Of a stretch of DNA of 64,000 bases, positions 9,526 through 46,245 are shown in pieces (the first letter of the stretch is position 1; each line of letters starts with the position of its first letter). Position numbers and translations under genes: made by a program. This DNA is from Escherichia phage ime. The notes beneath the pieces were generated by a model, which saw only the letters and a list, made by a program, of their open reading frames with translations, ran no database searches and had not been told where the DNA came from. The stretch is taken from sequence record MN850576.1, one strand, 5' to 3'.

Positions 9526-9554
9526 TTGACACAACGCTTCAGATTTAGTATCAT
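9526..9554 (+). promoter_or_regulatory. sigma70-like promoter (TTGACA-17-TATCAT)
   Basis: TTGACA 9526-9531, TATCAT 9549-9554, upstream of HPF gene. Confidence 0.5.
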
Positions 9555-9601
9555 TGTTTTCAAAGAGGGTTTGGTTCCCTCTTCTTTAAAAGGAACACGT
9601 T

Positions 9602-9919
9602 ATGCAAATTGAAATCACTGGCAACGTAGAAATCACTGAAGGTATGGTGTCTTTCATTTCCCACAAAATGTCTAAGCTGGAGCGTTTGCATCCCTCTGCC
9701 AACTATGCACGTGTGAGTGTAAAAGTTGAAAATGATCACCAGGAAGTTATGGCGTTCATTTTTGACAATTCTGGAAAAGAAGTTATTGCCAAAGCTAAAG
9801 GCAGTGATGCTTACGAGGCAACTGACCGTATGGTAGATGTTGCAGCACGTCAACTGGCTAAATGCGGTGGAAAGAAAGGTAAGGGGAAAGGCAAAGTAAA
9901 GATTGACTTTGGAGAATGA
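9602..9919 (+). CDS. hpf: ribosome hibernation promoting factor / RaiA-family protein (short form)
   Basis: MQIEITGNVEITEGM...KLERL...ARQLAK closely parallels E. coli HPF MQLNITGNNVEITEAL...KLEQY...ARQLTK (recalled). Confidence 0.75.
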   Translation: MQIEITGNVEITEGMVSFISHKMSKLERLHPSANYARVSVKVENDHQEVMAFIFDNSGKEVIAKAKGSDAYEATDRMVDVAARQLAKCGGKKGKGKGKVKIDFGE

Positions 9920-15201: not shown

Positions 15202-15417
15202 ATGAAGATAGAAATATTTGGTGGAGCTGACAACACTCGTGGCCTGATTTACCTTGAATTCGATGAATCATACCTGCCAGAGGTGTTAAATATGGACTCT
15301 GTTGCTGATGCTTTGGGAGTAAGTCCTAAAGATCTCTACTCTGGTGCTGAGATTGATGGTTGGGAGGAGACCATGAACATTGATTTCAGTGAAGTAGGTG
15401 ATGAACCACTGGACTGA
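15202..15417 (+). CDS. small acidic protein (family A-related)
   Basis: GAGGAGA RBS. Confidence 0.5.
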   Translation: MKIEIFGGADNTRGLIYLEFDESYLPEVLNMDSVADALGVSPKDLYSGAEIDGWEETMNIDFSEVGDEPLD

Positions 15418-15546
15418 CACACAATTAGCTGCCAGGCTAAAGTGCTGGAAGCGCACCTATAACACATCTTTCAACTAAATTTCCTACCACCACAATCACT
15501 TACCTCCCACACATGACTGTTTGCTTGTTTAGTGAGCAGTCATGCC

Positions 15547-15574
15547 TTGACATTCTTGCCTATCCTGATAAAAT
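15547..15574 (+). promoter_or_regulatory. sigma70-like promoter reading into ORF-free region
   Basis: TTGACA 15547-15552, TAAAAT 15569-15574; no ORF of 60 aa or more for ~2 kb downstream. Confidence 0.4.
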
Positions 15575-16992
15575 TAAGTTCTTCTCTTTTCTTTTACCGA
15601 GTAATTCGGGTTTTCTGTTCTCTTCGGTTTGAAGGGGTATGGAGATACACCTGAGTGAACAGGGTGAACAACCGAACCATTGGCTATGGCATTAGCATGG
15701 CGAAGCGGACGGGTGACGAAAGAGGGGCCGGAGGACACCAGTCACTGCCATATGGTATATGGGTGATAACCTGAAGAGTCTGAATAAGTGTTTAAGTACC
15801 AGTCAGAGGAAAAGGTGAATGGTAGCCGAAGGGGGAGGGGGGTTTCTTGTATCTTTAATTTGTATATTATGTATACACTTGTAAACCAATCTCATCTGAA
15901 TCTGTTTACCACACAAAGCGGATAGAGACAAATATCACCTATTAAACTTGAATTATTTATAGAAAATACCACAACACCACTTAAGTCTTTGATTTTACAC
16001 ACAAATCCTACAGATATTCAACCTCCATATTTAACATACTTGTAACATATTCCATACTCTACCTGTCTGATCAATCTACCCAACCACATCCTTCATATTT
16101 TCCCTGTCTGTACCACCCCTGCCCCGCCGGGAGTCCCGTCATATCTGGCTTTCCAGTAAATAGCACACCCACAAATATCATTGCCTGAAGAGGGTTTCAT
16201 CCCATAATACATGCCTTACCTGAAGAGCGCTTCATACACCACGTAAATTTTTTAATTGACCTGCAATTTTCCCGTCATGACCCCCCCCCTGCCCCGCCGG
16301 AGAGGTTGGCTTTTCCCACACAGACCTGAAGAGTCAGCCAGAAATATCTGAACAGGTCCAGTTCTGCCTTGTCATGAGCCGTAGCGACTGGAGTGCTGCC
16401 AGGCGGACGGAATGGGAATACTTCTCATTCTTATAATAATTCTCAAATATCGAGGCAGTGAGGCAAATTAATAGGTGAGGCCGTTCACACAGTGGCACAA
16501 CATTTGCAATCTATTTTGTGAGGGTGAATGAGAATACCTATCATTGTGAGAACCTTTATCATTACGGGCAATTTAACATAATACCCATTATGCGCACCAC
16601 TGGCGATACATACAGGGATTGATACCATGAGTTACAGTTTACGCATATAACAATCATATTTCTTACTATTTGTGTGGGATATAGTTAGCAACCAATAGAT
16701 TAGATATTGACCTACAGACTTCCAACCGTCTAGACGTCTAAACGCCCACACACCAAGGGTTATACATACATTACTGAATGTAAACAGGGCCGCAAAAATG
16801 CTACCATACCAGTTTGTAAATTTTTCATGCAGCACTTGACAAAGAGGAGAAAAACTTGTCTGACATAATGTGACCTAACTGACACAACATGACACTTTTA
16901 CACACCTATTAGTTTACACACTGGATTGTTTACATTCCTGATTGTTCACATGCTAACCATTTACATGATTGACTGTTTACACACCGATAATC

Positions 16993-17244
16993 AGCCATGC
17001 CATTCGTTTGCATGACAATAATTATACATGACAATAATCGCACTGATTATAATTAGCATGACATAATATAAAAGCAGGGCAACTATTAGCAGATCTATAG
17101 TTGCCTTGCTTGTTATGTCATGATTAACTAAATACAAGGCAACTATGATCTGATTAATAGTTTGCAGACAAACTATCACGGGGGTGATGGTTACTGCTTT
17201 TATATTATGTCGCGACTCCGTCGCGCCATGCCATTCGTTTGCAT
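16993..17244. repeat. 20-bp direct repeats (GCCATGCCATTCGTTTGCAT) flanking nested inverted repeats; candidate ori/pac
   Basis: Direct repeats at ~16993-17012 and 17225-17244; inverted-repeat arms 17060-17077/17194-17211; palindrome GGCAACTAT-N10-ATAGTTGCC 17078-17105; ATAGTTTG-CAGA-CAAACTAT 17157-17176. Confidence 0.6.
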
Positions 17245-17859
17245 AGTTGCCTTATTGTTACAGATAAAATAATTGTATTGTTAATTATTTCTTATCTTTC
17301 TATTAGTCATCTAATGATTTCAGTTAATATAGTAACGTACAGTAAACATTAGACGACTAAAGATTTCTCTGCTTATGGTAACCTAACGTGACAATTCCAG
17401 ACTGTTTACGAAAAATGTTGACACCTGGGCCGATTTATGTTATGCAGTTTACACGAATAATTATTTTATGCAGGTATTGACTATTCCGTTATTCTATGGT
17501 TGGAATAAATGCTTAGCAGGCTATAGAATGGCGAGCGTACGTAAATTCTGAGATCTGGCGGCTATAGTTATACTCGATTTTTCACGTAGAAAACGCTTTT
17601 GTAGCTATGTAAGTGTATGACTTATAAAGATTTTTAGTTGTTGACAAGATATTGGAGATGTGCATCAGATTAAATTTTGTGCAATAGCTACATTACGTGC
17701 ACTTTTGGAAGAAAAAACGTGTAAAAATGGCCCTGCTACCACACAATGAAAGATTATGCAATAGTTATTTTATATGTATATTTGTACAGTGTGTGGGATT
17801 AATGGCTAGTCAATTATTCCACTTGCCAGGTAGGGCCGTTTATGGTAGGAGAAGAGCAG

Positions 17860-17888
17860 ACAAAAAGAAAGGGGCCTTTAAGCCCCTT
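17860..17888 (-). terminator. rho-independent terminator (minus strand)
   Basis: GGGGC stem-loop; on minus strand followed by TTCTTTTTGT. Confidence 0.55.
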
Positions 17889-17906
17889 GATAATTCAGTT
17901 AAGAAA

Positions 17907-18326
17907 TTATAATGATTCGTATATTTCAAAAATCCGATTTGCCAGGTCGTTACGGTAGCGGAATTTTTCATCACGCTTGATCATTAAATCCTTATAGCCG
18001 TACTCTTTAAGCACTTCATTAACTTTATGGCGGCATACCTGCATATTATCTTGAGCGTCACCAATAAACTTGTTGCTGTGGTGCATTGCTTTAATTTCTT
18101 CTTCCAGGACCAGGGCAACTACCCGGACCGGATCAAGCTGGTAGGCGGTAACATCCATGCGGCATTGTAGACGGCTTTTAACGTCTGCCACCGGATATAC
18201 TGCAACCTCTTCCCCGTCAACATTAACAATAACTAGTTTACCATCGATTTCGAATCCTTTCGCCGCCGGACCGTGACAAAAAGCGTTATCAAAGCTATAT
18301 GCCGGATTATCAGATTTAATGTTCAT
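17907..18326 (-). CDS. hypothetical protein
   Basis: ORF track. Confidence 0.5.
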   Translation of the reverse strand: MNIKSDNPAYSFDNAFCHGPAAKGFEIDGKLVIVNVDGEEVAVYPVADVKSRLQCRMDVTAYQLDPVRVVALVLEEEIKAMHHSNKFIGDAQDNMQVCRHKVNEVLKEYGYKDLMIKRDEKFRYRNDLANRIFEIYESL

Positions 18327-18433
18327 GGTGTTTTTACCTCTTAGTTAATTTTCTTACAACTTCCCTTCAAAAAGAATATAGCAAAACTGCCGATCCCTGT
18401 CAACCAAGGATAGCATAATTTTTATGTGATCAA

Positions 18434-18449
18434 GGGGCTTTATTGCCCC
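18434..18449 (-). promoter_or_regulatory. GC-rich intergenic hairpin (GGGGC-N6-GCCCC)
   Basis: Palindrome seen in sequence. Confidence 0.4.
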
Positions 18450-18469
18450 TGACCATGTAACTTGTTGTA

Positions 18470-18733
18470 TTATTTGTTGCTCATCCAGTTTTCCCAAGCT
18501 GCCTGATAATCTGCCTCACTACGGCGGATCTCTTCTTGTTCTTCACGCCGGATCTCTTCTTCCAGGTACCCCAGTATATCGGCTTTTTTGGTCTGGCGTA
18601 ACATCCAATCATCTTTTTTACGAGTAAAGATCTTATAAGCTTTCTCGCAAACCTCTTTTTTGCTACCTTTCTGGACTTCAAGAATTCTGTAGGCCATGTA
18701 CTGAACTAATTTAAGCTGATCCAGACGTTTCAT
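18470..18733 (-). CDS. hypothetical protein
   Basis: ORF track. Confidence 0.45.
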   Translation of the reverse strand: MKRLDQLKLVQYMAYRILEVQKGSKKEVCEKAYKIFTRKKDDWMLRQTKKADILGYLEEEIRREEQEEIRRSEADYQAAWENWMSNK

Positions 18734-18810
18734 GATGTTTCCTCTTTATGTGGTTCGTTTTGATTAGTTGATAATACAGCAGTTCGCAGATCAGTCTTTA
18801 GCAATTCATG

Positions 18811-19029
18811 CTATTTACTCACAACGGTGTCGAAAACAAATTTTTCTTTATTGTCTAAACTCACGTATCCGATTCGACCACGCAAGCCGCAAGTAGTGCC
18901 GTACTCGTAACCATTAAGGCCTTTAACCTTCCAATCCGTACCCATTAAAACCGCATTATATTCCTGACCAACTACAAAAGCGCCCCCAGTCGATTCAATG
19001 CAAACAACTTTAATTTTACGGGTTGTCAT
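18811..19029 (-). CDS. hypothetical protein
   Basis: ORF track. Confidence 0.45.
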   Translation of the reverse strand: MTTRKIKVVCIESTGGAFVVGQEYNAVLMGTDWKVKGLNGYEYGTTCGLRGRIGYVSLDNKEKFVFDTVVSK

Positions 19030-19089
19030 TTTCTTTCTCTCTTTGTGTGGTTCTGATTAGTGGACCTTTTGGCCCGTGTCATTATCTTA

Positions 19090-19362
19090 TTACTTGCGGC
19101 GGCAGAATTCAAGCGTTTTTAATTGATAATCTTCCTCAGCCTGGAGTACTACCGCCTCGATCATTTCGTTGGCATTGTTAAAGCCATAACCTTTAGCGAA
19201 CTCATCCGCGCCACCTTCGTGATCATGTTCTGCGTTCATCGCTTCCACAAAATGGAATTCCAAATTGTTGAGGTAGGGGCTTGATGTGCCGTCTTCTTTT
19301 TCGATGAGATCCCAAATAGCATTAAAACGTGATTCGACTTCTTGATTAATCCAGCTTGACAT
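19090..19362 (-). CDS. hypothetical acidic protein
   Basis: ORF track. Confidence 0.5.
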   Translation of the reverse strand: MSSWINQEVESRFNAIWDLIEKEDGTSSPYLNNLEFHFVEAMNAEHDHEGGADEFAKGYGFNNANEMIEAVVLQAEEDYQLKTLEFCRRK

Positions 19363-19391
19363 AGTGTTTTCCTCTCTCCTGGTTATTGTGT

Positions 19392-19405
19392 GGGCACTTT
19401 TGCCC
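19392..19405 (-). promoter_or_regulatory. GC-rich 5' UTR hairpin (GGGCA-CTTT-TGCCC)
   Basis: ~30 nt upstream of start at 19362. Confidence 0.4.
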
Positions 19406-19573
19406 CTTCAAGATAAATGTTACCCCACCCCATGGCAGATGTCAACGGTTTTTATAGTTCTTATATGACAGGCAGGCCCGGTGATTGTCTCCACCCGTCG
19501 CCAGGTGCCTGCCGTGAAACAAGTATAACAAAAAACAGGACCATTGCAAGCCCTGTTTTGTAGTTTATAAGGA

Positions 19574-19765
19574 TTATATTTTTTCGCCTATGTAGTCCGG
19601 TCGGTTTTTCTCTGTCATGCGCTTGAGCAATTCTTGCATGTTGCTTATGGCTTGCAGTGTATCCCCTTCCAGACTTGAATCAACATAATCAGGATCGTCT
19701 ATAACCTTTCTATGATTATGATAACGCAGTACCGCCAATACCTTTCTAACTTGTTCGATATTCAT
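19574..19765 (-). CDS. hypothetical protein
   Basis: ORF track. Confidence 0.4.
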   Translation of the reverse strand: MNIEQVRKVLAVLRYHNHRKVIDDPDYVDSSLEGDTLQAISNMQELLKRMTEKNRPDYIGEKI

Positions 19766-19777
19766 TTTTATCGCTCT

Positions 19778-19912
19778 TTAAAACAAGGTGCCAACCGTTC
19801 CCAATAGATCACTGACTACCAGGACAATACTGATCAGCACATACCTAACCATAAGGGGAAAGAGCGCCAGCGATCCAGCCACAATCCCCAAGGTGATGAT
19901 TATCTTTCTCAT
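19778..19912 (-). CDS. small hydrophobic protein (44 aa), below track cutoff
   Basis: ATG 2 nt after upstream stop; hand-translated, stop verified. Confidence 0.3.
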   Translation of the reverse strand: MRKIIITLGIVAGSLALFPLMVRYVLISIVLVVSDLLGTVGTLF

Positions 19913-19914
19913 GG

Positions 19915-20199
19915 TTAACGGTTTACGTAAGCTTTACCGTTTACGGTGATGGGCAGGTCTTCCAGGTCTGGATCTTCCTTAAGGTCGCGAGCAAGCTCAC
20001 CGCACCGGATACCCTCGAATCCGTAGTACTCTGTTGTGCCGTCATTAAAAGTTTTAGCGGCAAGGCATAAGCGATAAGTAACCCCGATTTGATTGACGGC
20101 ATGGATATCCGTTAGATTAACCTCTTTTGCCAGCTCTTTAGCCATTACAGGCGCATTAAGTCCAACAACCAGGGCAACTACTGCGATCATCTTTTTCAT
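19915..20199 (-). CDS. secreted/periplasmic small protein (signal peptide)
   Basis: MKKMIAVVALVVGLNAPVMA N-terminus. Confidence 0.5.
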   Translation of the reverse strand: MKKMIAVVALVVGLNAPVMAKELAKEVNLTDIHAVNQIGVTYRLCLAAKTFNDGTTEYYGFEGIRCGELARDLKEDPDLEDLPITVNGKAYVNR

Positions 20200-20290
20200 T
20201 GTGTCTAGCCTCTTTCTGCTACGTTTAAGGCGGCGGTAACCGCCTGTTTATGATTTATTGGTTAATTTTCAGGTATCGCTATAAATTAAA

Positions 20291-20515
20291 CTATGCTGTA
20301 CGCTCAACTATAACAACGGTTTGAGGGATCTCACCTTCTACCACTATCAAGGCCTTTTTCTGCGTGATGGATATCTTTACCCGTTGCAGCGTGGCGGTGA
20401 AGTCTTTCATTTCGTCACGTGGTGTTTTAGTGCAATGCCAGATCTCAGGCTTACCTATTTGCAAGCCGCGTAAAAATTCTGTTTTACCTGTCTTATTCGT
20501 GATCATTTGATTCAC
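20291..20515 (-). CDS. hypothetical protein
   Basis: ORF track. Confidence 0.45.
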   Translation of the reverse strand: MNQMITNKTGKTEFLRGLQIGKPEIWHCTKTPRDEMKDFTATLQRVKISITQKKALIVVEGEIPQTVVIVERTA

Positions 20516-20516
20516 C

Positions 20517-20720
20517 TTAACCGATACCGTGGGAAGATAGGATCATGTTAGCCATAGTTGCAACCACTCCAACCGATAATGCCAGGCCAACTACTACAAC
20601 CGTGAAAATTTTCTCTAACATGATTCTACCCTCATTAATGGGCGTTGCCTTATTGCCCCGCCCTACGAAATACAGTCTATCAAGTAATAAACTATTGTCA
20701 AGATTTATTTTACTTCCCAA
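20517..20720 (-). CDS. small membrane protein
   Basis: ORF track; hydrophobic C-terminus. Confidence 0.4.
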   Translation of the reverse strand: MGSKINLDNSLLLDRLYFVGRGNKATPINEGRIMLEKIFTVVVVGLALSVGVVATMANMILSSHGIG

Positions 20721-20842
20721 ACGGAAAATTCACTACCTGGCGGAATCATCTTTTTAATCTTGTTTGCTGCTGCTACCAGATCCACGGCTTGTACTGTAAT
20801 AATATAACCAATTGTCGAGGCTGTTGCGTTGAAAGTTTTCAT
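20705..20842 (-). CDS. small protein (45 aa), below track cutoff
   Basis: ATG with GAGGGTAA RBS; hand-translated, stop verified. Confidence 0.3.
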   Translation of the reverse strand: MKTFNATASTIGYIITVQAVDLVAAANKIKKMIPPGSEFSVWEVK

Positions 20843-20861
20843 TAAATTACCCTCATTAATG

Positions 20862-20878
20862 GCGGGAAGTATTCCCGC
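20862..20878 (-). promoter_or_regulatory. 5' UTR hairpin (GCGGGAA-GTA-TTCCCGC)
   Basis: Perfect palindrome between candidate promoter (~20891-20919) and start at 20842. Confidence 0.45.
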
Positions 20879-20924
20879 GCTATGTAGTACACTTTACCAG
20901 ATTGTTGACTGTTGTCAAACTATT

Positions 20925-21104
20925 TTAACGATAATCATCATATGCTTTATTGACCTGGCGAATATAACATTCAAAAGCTAAATCAATAGATTTATATTCA
21001 CGGATATATTCACCATAGGAAACCACATACATTTCTATAGCTTCCTCATATGCGAGGAGAATAGAATCTAAGCCTACGATCTCAGTCTTTGCAATAATAG
21101 CCAT
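20925..21104 (-). CDS. hypothetical small protein (59 aa)
   Basis: ATG with AAAGAGGATAAAAATC upstream; hand-translated, stop verified. Confidence 0.4.
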   Translation of the reverse strand: MAIIAKTEIVGLDSILLAYEEAIEMYVVSYGEYIREYKSIDLAFECYIRQVNKAYDDYR

Positions 21105-21129
21105 GATTTTTATCCTCTTTGTGGTTGGT

Positions 21130-21144
21130 GGGGCTTGTTGCCCC
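21130..21144 (-). promoter_or_regulatory. 5' UTR hairpin (GGGGC-TTGTT-GCCCC)
   Basis: ~25 nt upstream of start at 21104. Confidence 0.45.
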
Positions 21145-21179
21145 CTTTGATTTATATTCTACAGTCTTATAAGGTCATG

Positions 21180-21389
21180 TCAACTATTTTCAAAAAATTT
21201 TTCTGCTGTAATATTTTTCCCGGTAGGGTTCGCTACTTTCAAAATTTTATCATGCACTGGACGCCCAAAAGAATAATCGCCGTCAGGCTGTACTATTACA
21301 GCCGCATAGGGTACGCCTTTTTCGTTTTTGCTGACAAAATAGATCACGTTGCCATTAATAGCCTCGGCGCGTTTAATTTGTTCCATCAT
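21180..21389 (-). CDS. hypothetical protein
   Basis: ORF track; AAGAGAGG RBS. Confidence 0.45.
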   Translation of the reverse strand: MMEQIKRAEAINGNVIYFVSKNEKGVPYAAVIVQPDGDYSFGRPVHDKILKVANPTGKNITAEKFFENS

Positions 21390-21421
21390 GATGATTTGCC
21401 TCTCTTTATTTTCATAATTGG

Positions 21422-21438
21422 GGGGCCTTTTCGGCCCC
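21422..21438 (-). promoter_or_regulatory. 5' UTR hairpin (GGGGCC-TTTTC-GGCCCC), followed by GCCCCGCCAGGTT motif
   Basis: ~33 nt upstream of start at 21389. Confidence 0.45.
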
Positions 21439-21445
21439 GCCAGGT

Positions 21446-21730
21446 TTATTTATTGATAGCGTGCAGCGGGAAAGGTACGCCAGGTTGATAGATAACTTTT
21501 ACAACCTCATCAGAGCAAAAGAAATTACAAAATTCACCCTGGTAAGCCTCATCCTCTTTTAATTCTTCATCAACATACTGGAAAAAGTAGTCAATGCTTG
21601 GATAATCCTGACCGGGATTATATTCAACCATGGTTAATAACAATTCTTGATCATTCCGTATGATATGCATACCAGCTTTTAAGTATTTGGCTTCCATTTC
21701 TACTACATCGCCAACGGTAACAATAGCCAT
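21446..21730 (-). CDS. hypothetical protein
   Basis: ORF track. Confidence 0.5.
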   Translation of the reverse strand: MAIVTVGDVVEMEAKYLKAGMHIIRNDQELLLTMVEYNPGQDYPSIDYFFQYVDEELKEDEAYQGEFCNFFCSDEVVKVIYQPGVPFPLHAINK

Positions 21731-21939
21731 GGTTTTAACTCCTATCTATCCGGTTAATGATTGGAGGCCTCACCGCCCCCCCCCGACACCCTTTATTATC
21801 CATATTGTAGGACTTGATGCAAGTACTTCTTTAAAAATTTTTTAAGCGCCTTGGGGGCCGCTGTAACGCCAAAATAATAAAGGCTATGCAACCGCATAGC
21901 CTTTATGTGATTATATCGCTGCAGGCCCTGCCAGGGGCC

Positions 21940-22290
21940 TTATTTTGCATTCTTTCCTATATTGCCGCTACGGTACCAGCGTTTACGGTGAAAATGGTAA
22001 TAATCACCATCGGCATTAAACATCAGATGATTTTCAATAACCAGCTTACGAAGGTGGGCCGGATCTTGTTCCATTCTTGCCAGATTCTGGCGGCTGTTAC
22101 GTAAGCGGATAAATTCTATATTCAGGCCGTTGATTGCAGCATGGATGTCAAAGTAACCACCTTTGAGACGTTCACGCATGGCGTTAAGCTCAACACAATA
22201 TACAGATTTCTCACAAATCAAGGTATTAGCCAGGGCGCGGACCTGGGCAAGGGGGTTAAGCTCATTAAGGTAATATAGTTTTACTTTCAT
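21940..22290 (-). CDS. hypothetical protein
   Basis: ORF track. Confidence 0.5.
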   Translation of the reverse strand: MKVKLYYLNELNPLAQVRALANTLICEKSVYCVELNAMRERLKGGYFDIHAAINGLNIEFIRLRNSRQNLARMEQDPAHLRKLVIENHLMFNADGDYYHFHRKRWYRSGNIGKNAK

Positions 22291-22307
22291 AAAATCACCT
22301 GCTGAAA

Positions 22308-22628
22308 TTAGTTTGAGAAAACATCGTTCACAATAGCGATCACAATGCCGCCCACCTTGTCACGGTCAACAATGCACAAATCACCATAAATCATGTGGTA
22401 GTCTGGATGATCTTTGACGGAATAGTCGATAAGTGTTTTCTTGTCATCCAGCTTACTAACTTCCATTCTCATAACGATATGAGAATCATCAAAGGCATTA
22501 TTCCGAAAAGTCATAACCTGACCGCCAGGGCACCCGGTGATTTCCACCTCCACGCCGTCTACGATCTGACCATCAAAGAAATAAAGATTATTAGCCTGGA
22601 TAAACATGATCATTACTCCTTTTTGCAC
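22308..22628 (-). CDS. hypothetical protein
   Basis: ORF track; start may be an internal Met. Confidence 0.5.
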   Translation of the reverse strand: MQKGVMIMFIQANNLYFFDGQIVDGVEVEITGCPGGQVMTFRNNAFDDSHIVMRMEVSKLDDKKTLIDYSVKDHPDYHMIYGDLCIVDRDKVGGIVIAIVNDVFSN

Positions 22629-22651
22629 TGATTATTTTAACAGGGTTTAAA

Positions 22652-22696
22652 TTTACTTTATTGATGGCCCTGGAGTCAAGGCCATCTAAAAATAAA
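22652..22696 (-). promoter_or_regulatory. 45-bp repeat copy 1: candidate promoter with palindromic operator over -35
   Basis: Identical to 26367-26411; contains GATGGCC-N10-GGCCATC with TTGACT on the minus strand. Confidence 0.45.
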
Positions 22697-22698
22697 TT

Positions 22699-22899
22699 TT
22701 ACAGGCCTACAATCTCTTTAATTCGTTTTACTGCTGCCTCAGCGCCTTGAGGGTAAAAATTATGGTAACCAATCACGCGAGTGATACTAATCGCCGTTTG
22801 ATGATCTTCATAATCACCTTTAAAGATTTCTTGACCGTCAATCAGCACGGCAATTTTTTCTTCTTTTTTGAAGTTAATAACGCGGATATTGTTGCTCAT
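22699..22899 (-). CDS. hypothetical protein
   Basis: ORF track. Confidence 0.45.
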   Translation of the reverse strand: MSNNIRVINFKKEEKIAVLIDGQEIFKGDYEDHQTAISITRVIGYHNFYPQGAEAAVKRIKEIVGL

Positions 22900-22933
22900 T
22901 TTGTTTCTCCTTTTGGAACTTTGTCTATGCGGT

Positions 22934-22948
22934 GGGGAGTGTCTCCCC
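22934..22948 (-). promoter_or_regulatory. 5' UTR hairpin (GGGGAG-TGT-CTCCCC)
   Basis: ~35 nt upstream of start at 22899. Confidence 0.45.
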
Positions 22949-22995
22949 GTTGATTGTTATTATCCATATTCTGGATCGGATTGCAACACTCAGGG

Positions 22996-23036
22996 AGAAA
23001 AAAATTTGAAAAGTTAGGCCCCCATGATCGGGGGCC
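22996..23036 (-). terminator. rho-independent terminator (minus strand)
   Basis: GGCCCCC-N6-GGGGGCC hairpin followed on minus strand by TTTTTTTCTC. Confidence 0.5.
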
Positions 23037-23040
23037 GTTC

Positions 23041-23160
23041 TTAGTTACTTACAGCGATAAAGTACATCCCTACGCCTAGCAATATTTCAAGGGCGATAAT
23101 CTCAAGCCATACCATAACGCGGCGCACCTTATCGGTGCATGGCTTATCCTTGGTTGTCAT
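23041..23160 (-). CDS. small protein (39 aa) with hydrophobic C-terminus, below track cutoff
   Basis: ATG with GGAAAGGGGGAGACG RBS; hand-translated. Confidence 0.3.
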   Translation of the reverse strand: MTTKDKPCTDKVRRVMVWLEIIALEILLGVGMYFIAVSN

Positions 23161-23269
23161 CGTCTCCCCCTTTCCTTCTGGTAGTAGTGACGCGATCTAC
23201 AATGGCCCCCAGGAGTCCTATCACGACACACACCACAAGAAAAATTATCTCCGCTGTTGTTCGATCCAT
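23144..23269 (-). CDS. small membrane peptide
   Basis: Internal ATG of track ORF 23144..23329 with GAGGA RBS. Confidence 0.3.
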   Translation of the reverse strand: MDRTTAEIIFLVVCVVIGLLGAIVDRVTTTRRKGGDDDNQG

Positions 23270-23379
23270 TGTTATAAAATTCCTCAAGATCAGGCCTGAA
23301 AATAAAGCGTTCGTTATTGAATCCGTCACGCCAGGCGGCTGGCTTCAAATCTCCACTAAAGGGATTAATTAACGTGGCA

Positions 23380-23751
23380 TTATTTAAACGGTTGGCCCAC
23401 ATATTTTCTATTCCTCTCAAATAGGCGATCCGCCTCAGTTAAACAAATCTCATGGGCGTGATCTCTGGTTTTAGCTTCATCGAAAACCTGTTGTGCAAGG
23501 CTGCAACGTAGGGAGACTGGAAGATCACTATAATAGGCGTTGACAAACGTTTGAGCGTCGTACAGGTCTGAAAATACTTTACCCTTTCTATTATTCCCCT
23601 TGTCAACAATTGCAAGGATAACCAATACAATAGTTGCAACCACCCCCAGGAAAATAGATATAATAAACCATAAAAAGGCGGATCTTCCCATCTTGCCAGC
23701 GATCCAGGCGTTAAACAAGGCAACCAATACAGCCAAAATAATAAATTCCAT
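23380..23751 (-). CDS. membrane protein
   Basis: ATG 23751 with AAAAGAGG RBS; two predicted TM segments. Confidence 0.5.
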   Translation of the reverse strand: MEFIILAVLVALFNAWIAGKMGRSAFLWFIISIFLGVVATIVLVILAIVDKGNNRKGKVFSDLYDAQTFVNAYYSDLPVSLRCSLAQQVFDEAKTRDHAHEICLTEADRLFERNRKYVGQPFK

Positions 23752-23815
23752 TCTATGTACCTCTTTTACAGTTCTGATTAACAATAAGGCGGCAAATATG
23801 CCGCCTGCTACCTGA

Positions 23816-24196
23816 TTAAAAATTATCGCCGTAAATCTTTCCGCTTTCTACCCATACCACCACGCGAGGCATACTATCCCACACGTCTTGTTTTAGATTG
23901 AGCGCGTGCAATTCTTCGGTGGTGCTCATACCGGGCACGGGCTGATTGTATACTGCAAAACGACCGCCTGCATAATCATAGGCCAGGGTTAAATCACACT
24001 GGATCATCTTTTTGATCATGGCATTAAGCATGGCGTTAGCCGCATATTGATCACGTTTTAAAGGCAACTCTTTGATTAGTTTGCGATAGTTTTCGATATG
24101 GTCGCACACTGTTTCACGAGGAAGATCTTTCATATCTTCACGGAATGTAACCAGGTTAAACATAACGGTGTCAATAGCCTTGGTAGTGTTTTTCAT
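23816..24196 (-). CDS. hypothetical protein
   Basis: ORF track; AGAGGATAA RBS. Confidence 0.5.
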   Translation of the reverse strand: MKNTTKAIDTVMFNLVTFREDMKDLPRETVCDHIENYRKLIKELPLKRDQYAANAMLNAMIKKMIQCDLTLAYDYAGGRFAVYNQPVPGMSTTEELHALNLKQDVWDSMPRVVVWVESGKIYGDNF

Positions 24197-24221
24197 GATG
24201 TTATCCTCTTTGTTTTGTGTT

Positions 24222-24240
24222 GGGGCAAACGTCTTGCCCC
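24222..24240 (-). promoter_or_regulatory. 5' UTR hairpin (GGGGCAA-ACGTC-TTGCCCC)
   Basis: ~25 nt upstream of start at 24196. Confidence 0.45.
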
Positions 24241-24286
24241 CTTGAGTTTTAATATAGCAGGTTTTTAGGTTATTGCAACACTTTAT

Positions 24287-24910
24287 TTATGAAAAAGTCA
24301 TCTCACCATATTCATCGACATCAAACCGCCAATCATTGGCCTCGATAAGGCCGATCAGGTTTTCTGCGGTGAACTGTTCTAGATAGGCCTCCTCCAGGTC
24401 TACGTAAACCTTGCGGGATAGCTCCCGTACCGTCTCGGTGATCAGTTCTTCCAGGTCTTCCACTTTGTTTTCTTGTTTGGCGGTCAGATCTAGCCAAGTG
24501 GTATCAATGTACCCGCTTACAGTGTTTTCATGGCTGTAATGGCTGTACTTGTCGCGTTCAACACTGGCTGATAACTCGCCATCGTGCATTGTGCCGAACA
24601 AGTGACGAATTGATCGGAACTTGGTCAGGGCCTTTACTTTACGCAAAAATTTTTCTAAATCCACGTTTTCAGCACTGATTGACGCGCCGTCACCCTGGCA
24701 CCAAAAGCCTGACCAATGTACTTCGGTATCTTCAAGGCCATACTCTGGAAAAACATATTCTTTATAGTATTCAATTACACTTTCTGCAAAAAAGTTATCC
24801 CCGCTGTGTTCTTCTCTTTCGCGGACCATTTCAACGGCTTTTTCTTTTTGTTCGTCGGTCAGCACGTCGAAAGATAAATTGTAACCTGCGGTAATGTTAA
24901 CGGTGGTCAT
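24287..24910 (-). CDS. hypothetical protein (207 aa)
   Basis: ORF track; RBS AGGAGAAAA. Confidence 0.55.
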   Translation of the reverse strand: MTTVNITAGYNLSFDVLTDEQKEKAVEMVREREEHSGDNFFAESVIEYYKEYVFPEYGLEDTEVHWSGFWCQGDGASISAENVDLEKFLRKVKALTKFRSIRHLFGTMHDGELSASVERDKYSHYSHENTVSGYIDTTWLDLTAKQENKVEDLEELITETVRELSRKVYVDLEEAYLEQFTAENLIGLIEANDWRFDVDEYGEMTFS

Positions 24911-24938
24911 GATATTTTCTCCTATTTTCTTTGTTAGT

Positions 24939-24957
24939 GGCGGGAAGTTTTCCCGCC
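24939..24957 (-). promoter_or_regulatory. 5' UTR hairpin (GGCGGGAA-GTT-TTCCCGCC)
   Basis: Perfect 8-bp-arm palindrome between candidate promoter (-35 at 24990-24995) and start at 24910. Confidence 0.5.
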
Positions 24958-24984
24958 TGTGTGTTTAAGTATACTTATTGAGGC

Positions 24985-25245
24985 TTACTTGTCAACACTA
25001 TTTTTTAAATTATTGTGGCGCAAAATGTTTAAAATCTCCTCAACGTCATCAACACGGCGGCAATTTTTAAACGCTACCAATTGCCCCATGATTTTAATCA
25101 CTGGGCGGCCTTGCCAGTGCCCCTGAAGAAAGCGCGCCCTGACTTTATCGGTGGAACTATCACGCCACCAAATAGCCTTGTTGTTGCAGTAGTAAAAATT
25201 ATTCAGGATAACATCAACTTTATCAAAATTTTTTAATTTACGCAT
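24985..25245 (-). CDS. hypothetical protein
   Basis: ORF track. Confidence 0.45.
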   Translation of the reverse strand: MRKLKNFDKVDVILNNFYYCNNKAIWWRDSSTDKVRARFLQGHWQGRPVIKIMGQLVAFKNCRRVDDVEEILNILRHNNLKNSVDK

Positions 25246-25435
25246 GGCGTTTACTCCTTTCTCTCTTTGATGTGGTTAGTATAGCTAACCTGTTGACGAT
25301 GTCAATGATATTTTTAACGCCATGAAACGGCCCTGGGCGATGTTTTCAGGTTAAGGGGGGCGATTGCATAGGTGGGGGCCTTTTTGGCGCTTACAGGGCC
25401 AACCAGGGGCGCTATTCGTAGGATAGAAATAAAAA

Positions 25436-25455
25436 GCCCCGCACAATGGCGGGGC
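25436..25455 (-). terminator. rho-independent terminator (possibly bidirectional)
   Basis: GCCCCGC-ACAATG-GCGGGGC flanked by A-run and T-run. Confidence 0.5.
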
Positions 25456-25463
25456 GTTGGTTG

Positions 25464-25661
25464 TTATTTGTCTTTATGGCGGTATCGTTCTGCCTGTCGT
25501 TCACGTTCCAAAAGTAGGCCGGGCAATTTACGATCATAATGATTACGCCAGATCTTCCCAAACCTTTTTGGCTTATTCAGTTTATTGTTACGCTGGCGGC
25601 GTTCTGGCAGCTCTTCGGAATCATGAGGGCGCTTTACAATTTTCTCGAAATTAATTTTCAT
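25464..25661 (-). CDS. small highly basic protein
   Basis: ATG 25661 with AAGGGGGG RBS; K/R-rich. Confidence 0.45.
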   Translation of the reverse strand: MKINFEKIVKRPHDSEELPERRQRNNKLNKPKRFGKIWRNHYDRKLPGLLLERERQAERYRHKDK

Positions 25662-26004
25662 ATATTCCCCCCTTGCTAACTTCAATATTGGCCTGAATAG
25701 CCCGGATACGGCGCTTTATAACTTCCTGATCTGTGTGGTCGTATCCCCAAAAGTCTACAATTTTTGCGCCCCCCGCCTTCAGGCGGTATAGTGTTTCCTG
25801 CATTTTGTAAGCCGGGATCGGTCGCGGTGTTACTTGGTCACCTTCTTTATTTTTATACTTTATAATATAATCTTCGTTATCGTTGAATGCCCAAAATGGA
25901 TATTCTGCAAGGGCGGTACTTCCTCTTTCCTTTTTATCCTGGATCTTATTTACAATTAAAGCCGTAGCAATAGCGCCAATAATAAAACTTGCCCCGCTGA
26001 TCAT
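25651..26004 (-). CDS. membrane-anchored protein
   Basis: ORF track; N-terminal TM. Confidence 0.5.
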   Translation of the reverse strand: MISGASFIIGAIATALIVNKIQDKKERGSTALAEYPFWAFNDNEDYIIKYKNKEGDQVTPRPIPAYKMQETLYRLKAGGAKIVDFWGYDHTDQEVIKRRIRAIQANIEVSKGGIYEN

Positions 26005-26077
26005 GTACTTTCTCCTTTCATGGTGTTAATAAATTATCTTTATAGATGGCCCTGCAACCAGGACCACCGAAAAATAA

Positions 26078-26323
26078 CTATTTCACAATGCCTACAAAAC
26101 AGATCCCGCCTTCACCTATATAAGCAATATCGGTCACTTTATAACTTGTCAAGATCTGCTTATTTAGTTCATTAATAAAATCGGTCATTGCGTTGGTGTA
26201 GTTGTCTTCCGTGTCTAAGGCATAATCCCAGGTGTACACCTTTTTACGTCCGAAGCCTTTTACCATGATACGGGCGCTTTTGGTGTTGGTAGGGGCATAA
26301 TATTTGGTGATTAGTGCTGCCAT
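26078..26323 (-). CDS. hypothetical protein
   Basis: ORF track. Confidence 0.45.
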   Translation of the reverse strand: MAALITKYYAPTNTKSARIMVKGFGRKKVYTWDYALDTEDNYTNAMTDFINELNKQILTSYKVTDIAYIGEGGICFVGIVK

Positions 26324-26366
26324 GGTTTTAACTCCTATGCATTAGTTCAGTGTTAACAGTATAAAG

Positions 26367-26411
26367 TTTACTTTATTGATGGCCCTGGAGTCAAGGCCAT
26401 CTAAAAATAAA
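26367..26411 (-). promoter_or_regulatory. 45-bp repeat copy 2: candidate promoter with palindromic operator
   Basis: Identical to 22652-22696. Confidence 0.45.
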
Positions 26412-26412
26412 C

Positions 26413-26808
26413 TCAATAAGTTTTTAGTACTTTCCCGTCCAATCTGTCAAGCTGGATCTCGATAGCTGCAGAAAACCTATTGTAAACCACATCGCCCAGG
26501 GAGTCCAGCCAATCTATGACGTTATATACCTGCTCTTTATTCTTGCAAGTCCGGATCCGTTTCATTACGTAAGACGGATCAATATTAGCGCTCTCGTTGT
26601 TGTGGTCCTGCGCCTGGCCTGCTGCGCTAGTTATAGATTTTACAACCACCTGAAAGGGCTTTAAGGTGCCTTTTGCGTTCATCTCACGCGCTTTTGCGGC
26701 GCGGTTGTTATATGTTACACAACGGCGGCAAATGTTGACCAAATGCATATCAATAATTTTTTCATCGTTTGCCAGTTCGTTCATGATGCGGCGTACGTTC
26801 TTATTCAT
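26413..26808 (-). CDS. hypothetical protein
   Basis: ORF track. Confidence 0.5.
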   Translation of the reverse strand: MNKNVRRIMNELANDEKIIDMHLVNICRRCVTYNNRAAKAREMNAKGTLKPFQVVVKSITSAAGQAQDHNNESANIDPSYVMKRIRTCKNKEQVYNVIDWLDSLGDVVYNRFSAAIEIQLDRLDGKVLKTY

Positions 26809-26827
26809 GATCTTTTTCCTTTGTGCT

Positions 26828-26846
26828 GGCGGGAAACATTCCCGCC
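26828..26846 (-). promoter_or_regulatory. 5' UTR hairpin (GGCGGGAA-ACA-TTCCCGCC)
   Basis: Same arms as 24939-24957; ~20 nt upstream of start at 26808. Confidence 0.5.
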
Positions 26847-26890
26847 TTTTGTGTCTAGTTTACTTAAATTTTGCAGCGTGTCAATGATTT

Positions 26891-27289
26891 TTATTCGTGG
26901 GCGCATGTTACAATGTGTTTTTTATAGCCCAGGTGGTCAGCAAGTGCCGACAAAAACTCTTCTTCGTAGATCCAGCCGTCGGCAGTGATCCCCATAGCAT
27001 TTAATGCGCTCTCAAGTGCTGCGTTAGCTTTATCGTAACCGTGACCGCTCGCCTTGCCGCCAGTATAACCGTACTTATTGTTCTTGTTGTCGTGAATCCA
27101 AAACACGCAGTAGTGAGTGTTCCCGCTGGCGGCGGCATAATACCGGATCTCAGCTACTTCGTGCAAATTATTGTCATCGTCCAGGCCCACCAGATTATAA
27201 GCCTTGTAAAATCCACGATCACGGCGGCAGTTCTTGACATCAGAAAAAGAAAAGTCCGCATTATCAAAATTAAAGGTGGTGGTTTTCAT
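26891..27289 (-). CDS. hypothetical protein
   Basis: ORF track. Confidence 0.5.
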   Translation of the reverse strand: MKTTTFNFDNADFSFSDVKNCRRDRGFYKAYNLVGLDDDNNLHEVAEIRYYAAASGNTHYCVFWIHDNKNNKYGYTGGKASGHGYDKANAALESALNAMGITADGWIYEEEFLSALADHLGYKKHIVTCAHE

Positions 27290-27353
27290 GATTTTATCCT
27301 CTTAGTGTCTTTTGTGCTTTTAGTGTATTTGGTGTCGGACTATATGTCAATAC

Positions 27354-27551
27354 TTATTTTTTATTAAACCAGTGGTTGATCTGTCCTTTTGTCAGGGCGC
27401 AACGATTAAGCTGTTGCCGGGTATAGCTCTGACCGCGACGGAATTTATAAAGGCCTTGCCCGTTGTTGATGGTTACGTCCACCTGGCAAACCATTTGATC
27501 GGTGACCACCTGGCGAGTGTTGCGACGTACTTTGATCCCGTATGCGTTCAT
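27354..27551 (-). CDS. small basic protein
   Basis: ATG 27551 with AAAGAGGATAA RBS. Confidence 0.45.
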   Translation of the reverse strand: MNAYGIKVRRNTRQVVTDQMVCQVDVTINNGQGLYKFRRGQSYTRQQLNRCALTKGQINHWFNKK

Positions 27552-37099: not shown

Positions 37100-38001
37100 C
37101 AATAGTTCAGGTAGGTCGTTAAGCTACCCCGCACCATTACGTGCACAGCCATACGGTTTCCTGTATGGATCGGACTATCTCACTACCTTGTTACCAAGGC
37201 ACCTCTCATTTCGACCGCACTTGCTGGCCTACTCTACTCGCTTCTTCACACCAAACTATGTTGGAGCTATGCTTTCGATAGTCTCTGAACGTTACTACCA
37301 GGTGTAGTTTTTAGAGATATGTTTCCACTGTCTTCTTTGCTTTATGGCTCTGACCGTCTCATAAGGATACCCAAGATCCCTAATCTCACATTGTCGTAGA
37401 CCACTCTGCAACAGTTCACAAATCTCCATTACCTCATCCTCGGTCAGCACAGCGTTGGCATTATACTCACCGACTGGCCTTACTCTGAGCTCATTATCGT
37501 AGGCGTGTTTGATATTTTCACCGGGGGTAGTCCATTCCAGGTTCCAGTATGCATTGTTGTACTTATTTCCATCCTTATGGTTCACCCATGTGAGCTTTTC
37601 AGGATCAGGGTTCGGTACAAAGCATTCAGCAACCAAGTGGTGGACACCTTTTGTGCACTGCCTTCCATCGATGAGCATGGTTACGCAAAGGTAACCTCTA
37701 CCATTATCAAAACAAAACATTGTTGTATGATCACGTTTCGATAAAGGTATTGTTCCATCATCAAACACGATATACCCGTGATAATCAGCTGATCTAGCCA
37801 TTTTAACTACACCCCTTTAGTCTTCGCTGCGGATTAGCATATTGAGTTTTTACCATGTTTAGGTGTAAAAGTCAACTTAGCCTTCCCGTCAATTAAAGAG
37901 GTTTTCGACGTGCATCACTGCACGAAGCCACAATGTTATTTATGGTAATAAATAATACGACGAACACCTTCATCGTACCACCCACGCTTCACCATTTGGT
38001 G
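37100..38001 (-). mobile_element. ~900-bp insertion in DNA polymerase gene (putative group I intron carrying an HNH homing endonuclease gene)
   Basis: Interrupts Pol A at motif C (H|DE); stop-rich flanks of 134 and 193 nt around the HNH ORF; last nucleotide G before exon 2. Confidence 0.45.
37295..37801 (-). CDS. HNH homing endonuclease
   Basis: HHLVAECFVPNP...VNHKDGNKYNNAYWNLEWTTPGEN HNH signature. Confidence 0.75.
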   Translation of the reverse strand: MARSADYHGYIVFDDGTIPLSKRDHTTMFCFDNGRGYLCVTMLIDGRQCTKGVHHLVAECFVPNPDPEKLTWVNHKDGNKYNNAYWNLEWTTPGENIKHAYDNELRVRPVGEYNANAVLTEDEVMEICELLQSGLRQCEIRDLGYPYETVRAIKQRRQWKHISKNYTW

Positions 38002-45842: not shown

Positions 45843-45903
45843 CGTTTGGTGCTCTCCTTAGTTTTTGTGGGGAGGAGTGCCTCCCCTTTATACTCACATC
45901 TTA

Positions 45904-46245
45904 CTACTCAAGGTCTTCAGAGTCAAGCTCAAAAAGAATCAAACTGTGCATACCTGCAGAGAGATTAACACACCCTGCAACAATAAGGGTTTGATAGTAA
46001 GGTTCAGCACCCTCAATGTCTTCGTTAAAATCCACAACAAGGTAGTCACCTTTGTTAAAGGTGTATTTGTCCGATGTAAACGCAAAACCTGCCCAGTCCC
46101 CTACTGCAGGATCTTTATCAGTCACCTTTGTTAGCAGTAGATCTTTTTCACGAGATCTTTTAGTAAAATCGTGAATCACAACATCCTTCTCTTCAGGAGT
46201 CGGATTGCCACACACGTAGTTAACGATATTTCTCCACAAACTCAT
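45904..46245 (-). CDS. hypothetical protein
   Basis: ORF track; ATGA overlap. Confidence 0.5.
   Translation of the reverse strand: MSLWRNIVNYVCGNPTPEEKDVVIHDFTKRSREKDLLLTKVTDKDPAVGDWAGFAFTSDKYTFNKGDYLVVDFNEDIEGAEPYYQTLIVAGCVNLSAGMHSLILFELDSEDLE

Follow-up and report, generated by a model that had tools for sequence, protein, structure and literature searches.

Why do small leftward genes in the early region of Escherichia phage ime carry a short GC-rich hairpin between their promoter and their ribosome-binding site? We addressed this question in a window of 64,000 nucleotides (nt) from sequence record MN850576.1, which represents a Vequintavirus, an rV5-like coliphage that is 93-98% identical to the phages MaxBurger and EdH4. 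On the minus strand of this window, we found a recurrent layout that consists of TTGACA or TTGCAA, a spacer of 16-17 nt, TAnnnT, a gap of 8-12 nt, a GC-rich hairpin of 5-9 bp, an A/C-rich leader, a Shine-Dalgarno (SD) sequence, and ATG. T4-like phages, an unrelated lineage, possess analogous promoter-early stem-loop (PeSL) cassettes, in which the hairpin occupies another position. The reading that we tentatively prefer, with somewhat less than even confidence, has two parts: the hairpin would be a 5'-proximal protective or insulating structure in the sense RNA, and the repeated cassette parts would provide DNA homology for the exchange of ORFans.

A recurrent promoter, hairpin and ribosome site cassette

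A preliminary description of the interval 18434-26846 listed nine perfect palindromes, 15-35 nt before the start codons of small leftward genes and in several cases just downstream of sigma70-like promoters. All nine palindromes are present where it placed them, but only seven of them (19392, 20862, 21130, 22934, 24222, 24939, and 26828) fit a promoter-hairpin-ribosome site layout. At these seven sites, the -10 element ends 10-12 nt before a stem of 5-8 bp with a loop of 3-5 nt, the stem ends 19-34 nt before the ATG, and the leader holds AGGAG or GAGG. The other two palindromes belong to different classes, a point that had been missed: the one at 18434 is 107 nt away from the ATG at 18326 and lies upstream of a TTGACA at 18403, and the one at 21422 has neither a recognizable promoter nor a U-tract. 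Two stems also needed correction: the 20862 hairpin has 7 bp, with its outer G.G unpaired, and the 19392 hairpin has 5 bp.

Four further members were found beyond these sites (20640-20663, 19062-19075, 45869-45886 and, on the plus strand, 9563-9583; Table 1). Nine of the 11 cassettes are located within 19-27 kb; small leftward genes of 34-207 amino acids (aa) surround them there, as they do the hairpins of the 18434-26846 interval. Across all cassettes, the stem begins 8-12 nt after the -10 element and ends 18-34 nt before the ATG, and the loops measure 3-7 nt, with the exception of that of c20640 (14 nt). The promoters possess 9-11 of 12 matches to TTGACA/TTGCAA-N16-17-TAnnnT and are accompanied by A/T-rich upstream stretches such as AAAAATAGTG and ATAAAAATCA. 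To quantify this recurrence, we counted composites of a promoter (at least 9/12 matches), a hairpin, and an SD-ATG combination. The window contains 11 of them, compared with a mean of 0.13 and a maximum of 2 in 60 dinucleotide-preserving shuffles, and two of the 11 counted composites (23806 and 13818) are weak-promoter matches on real U-tract terminators. Recurrence of the composite by chance is excluded.

The corresponding region of the rV5 genome map is early and ORFan-rich, and Table S4 of the rV5 paper already lists promoters P164, P168, P174, P185, P186, P194, and P195 and the U-tract terminators t164, t177, t181, and t184 for it. None of the promoter-proximal hairpins is included there, and ARNold did not call them in rV5. 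In the EdH4 record, three of the hairpins from the preliminary description, that of c21130 among them, carry the label 'putative transcriptional terminator'. A description of the promoter-hairpin composite in rV5-like phages was not found in the literature searched. The promoters and the true terminators had been annotated before; the composite, and with it the connection to gene shuffling, appears to be undescribed for the Vequintavirinae lineage.

Table 1. Cassettes, contrasting hairpins and terminators, and the second element in the window
Feature	Span	Strand	Promoter	ATG (gene)	Hairpin position	Hairpin	Remarks
c26828	26806-26884	-	-35 TTGACA 26884-26879; -10 TAAACT 26862-26857	26808 (131 aa)	26846-26828	GGCGGGAA-tgt-TTCCCGCC	Promoter P194 of rV5; invariant in 7 genomes
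c24939	24908-24995	-	-35 24995-24990; -10 TATACT 24973-24968	24910 (207 aa)	24957-24939	GGCGGGAA-aac-TTCCCGCC	Promoter P185 of rV5; orthologs with loop inversion, U.G pair, mismatches
c24222	24194-24278	-	-35 TTGCAA 24278-24273; -10 TATATT 24256-24251	24196 (126 aa)	24240-24222	GGGGCAA(G)-..-(T)TTGCCCC	MaxBurger ortholog with 9-bp stem and G.U pair
c22934	22897-22986	-	-35 TTGCAA 22986-22981; TG-extended -10 GATAAT 22964-22959	22899 (66 aa)	22948-22934	GGGGAG-aca-CTCCCC	Orthologs keep GGGG/CCCC core; loop and inner pairs differ
c21130	21102-21183	-	-35 21183-21178; -10 TAGAAT 21161-21156	21104 (59 aa)	21144-21130	GGGGC-aacaa-GCCCC	Promoter P174 of rV5; 'putative terminator' in EdH4
c20862	20840-20918	-	-35 20918-20913; -10 TAAAGT 20896-20891	20842 (45 aa)	20878-20862	GCGGGAA-tac-TTCCCGC	Leader CCATTAATGAGGGTA recurs in c20640
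c20640	20619-20701	-	-35 20701-20696; -10 TAGACT 20679-20674	20621 (34 aa)	20663-20640	GGGCG..(14-nt loop)..CGCCC	Predicted 5' end, minimum free energy (MFE) -18.3 kcal/mol
c19392	19360-19445	-	-35 19445-19440; -10 TAACAT 19422-19417	19362 (90 aa)	19405-19392	GGGCA-aaag-TGCCC	Promoter P168 of rV5
c19062	19027-19112	-	-35 TTGAAT 19112-19107; -10 TAAGAT 19089-19084	19029 (72 aa)	19075-19062	GGGCC-aaaa-GGTCC	G.U pair; gene absent from EdH4 and rV5_ev168
c45869	45840-45926	-	-35 TTGACT; -10 TAAGAT 45903-45898	45842 (441 aa)	45886-45869	GGGGAGG-cact-CCTCCCC	Beyond the 18434-26846 interval
c9563	9526-9604	+	TTGACA-N17-TATCAT, then 8 nt to hairpin	9602	9563-9583	AAGAGGG-tttggtt-CCCTCTT	Promoter P144 of rV5; best covariance-model score, 44.5 bits
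Site 18434	18433-18450	-				Copy of t164 hairpin	Upstream of promoter P164; not a hairpin of a 5' untranslated region
Site 21422	21422-21438	-		21389, 32 nt after hairpin	21422-21438	GGGGCC-gaaaa-GGCCCC	Intercistronic; 7 nt after stop of gene 21446-21730
t164	17869-17888	-					True terminator; U-tract TCTTTTTGTC
Other U-tract terminators	21877-21906; 23017-23036; 23787-23806; 25436-25455	-					Contrast set
Second element	26353-26411; copy 22637-22695; diverged 26045-26068	-	-35-like TTGACT in 10-nt loop; then TAAAGT/TAAATT		22663-22686; 26045-26068; 26378-26401	GATGGCC...GGCCATC (7 bp)	TTTTTAGATGGCC-TTGACTCCAG-GGCCATCAATAAAGTAAA; precedes genes 22308-22613, 25651-26004, 26078-26323

Hairpins near the predicted 5' ends of the transcripts

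The U-tract of an intrinsic terminator is absent from the cassettes. Over the 10 nt that follow the stem on the coding strand, we counted 0-3 U (mean 1.4), compared with 5-8 U in five terminators of the region (t164, t177, t181, t184, and the 25436 terminator). The hairpins also keep a fixed position 8-12 nt after the -10 element, and the stem accordingly falls at about +4 of the RNA that the cassette itself encodes. Both properties bear out the view of the preliminary description that these hairpins are not terminators on the coding strand.

A start of transcription at the conserved pyrimidine-A located 7-8 nt after the -10 element would put the beginning of the stem at about +3 to +6. The predicted transcripts fold into a single 5' hairpin with free energies of -8 to -18 kcal/mol (z -1.7 to -3.8), with c9563 (-0.2) as an exception; the leaders of hairpin-less promoters fold at about 0 to -3 kcal/mol. 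Downstream of the stem, the leader is unstructured and consists in most cassettes of 71-80% A+C. The SD sequence is unpaired in most cassettes and is paired in the MFE structure of c20862, c20640, c22934, and c19392. An A/C-rich leader motif, roughly (A)CCACA(C/T)AAAGAGGA..A(A)TCATG, is common to many early genes, hairpin-less promoters included (e.g., 21105-21129, 24197-24221, 18734-18760, 25246-25277, and 27290-27321), and constitutes the homology at one recombination junction.

mRNA of E. coli is protected by secondary structure at its 5' end, since RppH and RNase E require a 5' end that is single-stranded (PMC3997798). Judging from this property of the two enzymes and from the geometry of the cassettes, 5'-proximal protection or insulation of the mRNA is the likeliest role of the hairpins. 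The near-consensus sigma70 promoter with its A/T-rich upstream stretch would be read by the unmodified RNA polymerase of the host, and the hairpin at about +4 would pair the transcript's 5' end region. This paired region may impede RppH as well as the scanning, 5'-end-dependent attack by RNase E on short, very early mRNAs. In read-through transcripts, the hairpin may also prevent the open ribosome site from pairing with RNA that lies upstream. The common promoter, hairpin, and leader sequences would at the same time serve as DNA homology for the gain, loss, and replacement of ORFan genes, as has been proposed for the PeSLs of T4-like phages. A role as a 5' stabilizer had been among the suggestions of the preliminary description; the geometry fits it, and it is from this geometry that we infer the role.

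We consider it unlikely, yet worth keeping in mind, that the hairpins act instead as attenuators or terminators that stop or lower transcription entering from cassettes upstream and leave each gene mainly under the control of its own promoter, the role first ascribed to PeSL stem-loops. A precedent exists in a PeSL stem-loop that cut lacZ expression as much as rrnB T1 (Arbiol et al., PMC2839356), and the annotators of both EdH4 and Alma labeled three of the hairpins as putative terminators. Moreover, a hairpin closely precedes or follows nearly every promoter of the region; examples of the former are the 18433 copy before P164 and the 25436 terminator before P186. However, a terminator placed after a promoter would equally stop the cassette's own transcripts, and the tight spacing to the -10 element is not needed for ending upstream transcripts. 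The scarcity of U in the sense strand and the lack of an ARNold call in rV5 speak against such a function as well.

Gene exchange and conservation of the hairpins

We compared the window with EdH4, rV5_ev168, and the IMG/VR contig L006 and found four indels whose junctions lie inside repeated cassette parts. The repeated parts are breakpoints of gene gain and loss between relatives; they, and the status of the module as the rV5-lineage counterpart of the PeSL cassettes, had escaped the preliminary description. At the first junction, the gene 17907-18326 and its promoter are flanked by the similar hairpins 17869-17888 and 18433-18450, in place of which EdH4 and L006 hold one chimeric hairpin; this two-hairpin flank explains the palindrome at 18434. 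At the second, copies of the leader ACTAATCA.AAC..CCACA.AAAGAG lie on both sides of the gene 18811-19029, and EdH4 and rV5_ev168 fuse the 19062 hairpin directly to the leader of the next gene. At the third, EdH4 possesses two extra genes between two copies of a second element with a hairpin of its own, and the window contains a single chimeric copy (26353-26411); three hairpins of this second type are present in the window, with none expected. At the fourth, the 45-aa gene 20705-20842 is missing from L006, and the junction is the leader shared by c20862 and c20640. These junctions show that the repeated cassette parts act as DNA homology in the exchange of ORFans.

Could the palindromes and their flanking repeats then be nothing other than recombination substrates or by-products (cruciforms or short-homology crossovers) that move ORFan cassettes and play no role in RNA? 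One of the crossovers is located inside the hairpin pair 17869/18433 and three are in other repeated cassette parts, and mini-circles provide a precedent from the PeSLs. In MaxBurger, the loop in the ortholog of 24939-24957 (L014 7251-7322) is changed from AAC to GTT with the arms of the stem left unchanged; this inversion is the signature of the flip of a DNA palindrome. Nevertheless, three of the four junctions lie in a leader or in the second element type, not in hairpins of the main class, and the hairpins with G.U pairs (c19062, c24222, TH18, and PVP-SE1) are not DNA palindromes. Since the stems differ between cassettes, their homology is lowered, and the position relative to the -10 element is fixed. 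An explanation at the level of DNA only is rather improbable in our estimate.

Similarly improbable is the proposal that the hairpins are a self/non-self mark on mRNA: the phage would hasten the 5'-end-dependent decay of host transcripts while its own earliest ORFan transcripts are shielded by the hairpin of a portable promoter-hairpin-RBS module, and the modules would in addition be integron-like sites of recombination through which accessory genes, ready for expression, pass from one rV5-like phage to another. Stimulation of RNase E on host mRNA has been reported for T4 Srd, and the rV5 paper regards gp11 as a probable homolog of Srd (Srd/anti-sigma). A link between an Srd-like protein and shielding by the hairpins is speculative. 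The positional counterpart of rV5 gp11 in the window is the rightward open reading frame (ORF) 55576-56553, which lies just after a divergent promoter pair (55474 and 55544). Pfam gave no match for the full ORF, and a shorter ORF, 56080-56553 (the C-terminal 157 aa of 55576-56553), matches a PHROG labeled HNH endonuclease.

The stems differ among cassettes (GGCGGGAA, GGGGAG, GGGGC, GGGGCAA, GGGCC, GGGGAGG, and AAGAGGG), and their position is kept both between paralogs and between genera. Since a plain MAFFT alignment left the stems out of register, we made an N-padded, hand-registered alignment for a covariance model. In this alignment (13 cassettes), whose pair counts are by construction, both-side pair changes occupy 26 cells, compared with 7.8 in shuffles. 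The covariance model retrieved 85 matches in the window and ten related loci (11 sources) with 84.6% paired, compared with 40-58% with slid partners; loci L003, L004, and L007-L017 entered the study through this search only. There were no matches in 59.5 kb of unrelated phage DNA, nor any cassette match in six distant IMG/VR loci, and a search of IMG/VR with the 207-aa protein recovered only two close relatives. Other stems were seen in this same layout in TH18 (distantly related within the subfamily), before genes found only in JEP1, and in Salmonella phage PVP-SE1 (e.g., TTGACA-N17-AATAAT, 10 nt, GGCCGGGAG-cgg-TTCCCGGTC). This recurrence is independent support for a kept structure.

Within orthologous cassettes, for each of which up to ten genomes were compared, none of the 48 columns of the -35 element is variable, and neither are most of those of the -10 element (3/48 variable). 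The variable columns amount to 12/104 in the stem, 12/82 in the discriminator, 24/130 in the spacer, 25/98 in the tail, and 9/28 in the loop. The stems thus vary less than the loops (P=0.017).

It is quite improbable, by our assessment, that the hairpins are terminators of antisense (rightward) transcription that guard the early region from convergent read-through. The plus strand is T-rich after the stems (mean 4.7 T per 10 nt; 6-7 in five cassettes), and in our scan the sites 21130, 22934 (as 22930), 24222, 24939, and 26828 appeared terminator-like on that strand. This richness in T mirrors the A/C-rich initial transcribed region that hairpin-less promoters share, P186 and P195 among them, and several cassettes have only 2-4 T. 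The G.U pairs would become A.C mismatches in antisense RNA, and there is no rightward promoter or gene within 18-37 kb.

A binding site for a protein (a boxB/nut-like antitermination hairpin, an operator for a phage repressor, an RNase III site, or an N4-type hairpin promoter) is very improbable: three copies of GGCGGGAA-N3-TTCCCGCC do lie at an operator-like position (about +4 to +22) and the 21422 loop, GAAAA, is as in lambda boxB, but the stems and loops differ between cassettes, the loops vary in orthologs, a boxA-like conserved flank is lacking, and there is no match to an Rfam family. RNase III needs a double-stranded stem of roughly two helical turns. The suggestion of the preliminary description that the hairpins are RNase III sites accordingly fails on stems of 5-9 bp, which are far too short. 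Its alternative, hairpin-type promoters, is unnecessary next to the near-consensus sigma70 promoter, already present in the rV5 paper, that each hairpin follows, and neither the length nor the sequence of the loop is conserved. All four of these readings were rejected. The N4-type promoter has a conserved hairpin with a 3-nt loop and is read by a virion RNA polymerase, whereas the loops here measure 3-7 nt (14 in c20640) and vary in orthologs, with a sigma70 promoter before each hairpin; a lambdoid nut site has a conserved boxB loop and boxA sequence, whereas the cassettes have no conserved loop or flank. Our Rfam scan of 15-38 kb found no family that covers the hairpins, the sole match being a sub-threshold group I intron elsewhere.

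Several findings weigh against the protective role that we prefer for the hairpins. The hairpin is optional, as leaders without structure follow the strong promoters at 18375, 25278, and 27322 and every strong promoter within 30-37 kb, and two hairpins (21422 and 20228) have no promoter. The overhang of 2-5 nt that promoter geometry predicts before the stem may still admit RppH or RNase E. Mapped transcription start sites or mRNA half-lives for rV5-like phages were not found in the literature searched. Since the alignments were built or fitted around the hairpins, the covariation counts describe the stems and do not prove selection. The stems are only marginally less variable than spacer, discriminator, and tail (P about 0.05-0.08). 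The asymmetry between sense G.U pairs and antisense-type A.C mismatches leans to the sense strand but is weak (Wilcoxon P=0.027 on non-independent data), as is the outcome of a symmetric search for such an asymmetry (5 vs 2). Finally, natural isolates possess mismatched stems: MiataMamis (L003 7546-7617) and L006 (1650-1721) at c24939, with C.A or G.A mismatches, and rV5_ev168 (L002 11379-11450) at c21130, with GGAGC...GCCCC. Such disrupting substitutions in otherwise conserved cassettes indicate that the hairpins are not indispensable.

Genomic setting and relation to known systems

Genes in the window run rightward to about 15.4 kb and, after an ORF-poor stretch, leftward from 17.9 to 55.4 kb. 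A Pfam scan of eight small proteins encoded downstream of the hairpins gave no match, and a PHROGs scan of five of these small downstream proteins gave only families of unknown function. Bases 18000-27500 are matched by 252 phage records, 58 of which reach a query coverage of 80% or more at 90-98% identity (e.g., MaxBurger, EdH4, and Alma); JLBYU08 is 100% identical to a 901-bp piece of the window. About 22 of the GenBank records matching this coliphage region are named 'Campylobacter phage' (host C. jejuni), and two of them, C2 included, show about 93% identity with a query coverage above 90%. Such records suggest that the public collection holds mislabeled or contaminant genomes.

The ORF-poor stretch (15400-17900), where the rightward and leftward gene blocks converge, matches in position the box marked 'non-coding' on the rV5 map. 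Within it lie TTTACA-type repeats at 16-nt spacing (16897-16981), two identical 20-nt sequences in direct orientation (16994 and 17225), and an inverted repeat of 18 nt without mismatches (17060-17077 and 17194-17211); the stretch may be an origin or packaging region. No tRNA genes were found in the whole 64-kb window. The sub-threshold group I intron match (31.9 bits, E=9.6e-5, full model) covers 37150-37951 on the minus strand, directly after an 809-aa ORF with a partial match to family-A DNA polymerase. An internal ORF of 168 aa (37295-37801) matches HNH_3 weakly, and the stretch is probably an intron-split DNA polymerase gene with a homing endonuclease.

In RB49 and phi1, PeSLs combine consensus early promoters with stem-loops that flank ORFans in hyperplastic regions, and their crossovers fall in the loop or between the -10 element and the SD sequence or ATG (Arbiol et al., 2010; PMC2839356). 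PST and nt-1 contain variant forms (Comeau et al., 2014; PMC4122927). PeSLs and the cassettes described here are built of the same parts: A/T-rich DNA upstream, a sigma70 early promoter of consensus type, a stem-loop of a G-run and a C-run, an SD sequence, and an ATG. Both are clustered among small ORFans, and for both, the indels that distinguish close relatives join inside the repeated cassettes, the stem-loop and the -10-to-SD interval included. Besides the lineage, Vequintavirinae here, the geometry is different: the main hairpin is inside the transcript, 8-12 nt downstream of the -10 element, whereas that of RB49 lies mostly between -35 and -10 or overlaps -10. Only the second element (22663, 26045, and 26378), which encloses the -35, comes close to this arrangement. 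The stem sequences of our cassettes differ between copies and the U-tract is absent. Terminator activity (of one stem-loop, with a reporter) and encapsidated mini-circles are evidence from T4-like phages, while the present cassettes are known from their sequence.

The 5' stabilizing stem-loops of ompA and papA resemble the cassette hairpins in being short, GC-rich, and near the 5' end (predicted here), followed by an open ribosome site, and in their host, E. coli, where 5' pairing hinders RppH and RNase E (PMC3997798). The predicted overhang of our hairpins is at the limit of protection, and these hairpins, being components of a shuffled module, recur on about ten tandem genes. With intrinsic terminators, the hairpins share a GC-rich stem of 5-9 bp, a short loop, an intergenic location and, in some database records, the name; they differ in the missing U-tract on the transcribed strand and in following, not preceding, the promoter. 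A 5'-terminal stabilizing stem-loop of a phage mRNA is also known from the T7 gene 10 leader.

If our reading is true, PeSL-type cassettes would not be peculiar to T4-like phages and would represent a convergent way in which large virulent phages express and exchange their accessory early genes. The hairpin would then act at the level of the transcript, through 5' protection or insulation, and not as the terminator assumed so far, and the 'terminator' labels that hairpins carry in databases would need correcting. Several phages of the BASEL collection, e.g., MaxBurger, carry the cassettes and are easy to test. The cassettes would constitute a natural library of compact promoter, 5' hairpin, and ribosome-binding site parts active in E. 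coli.

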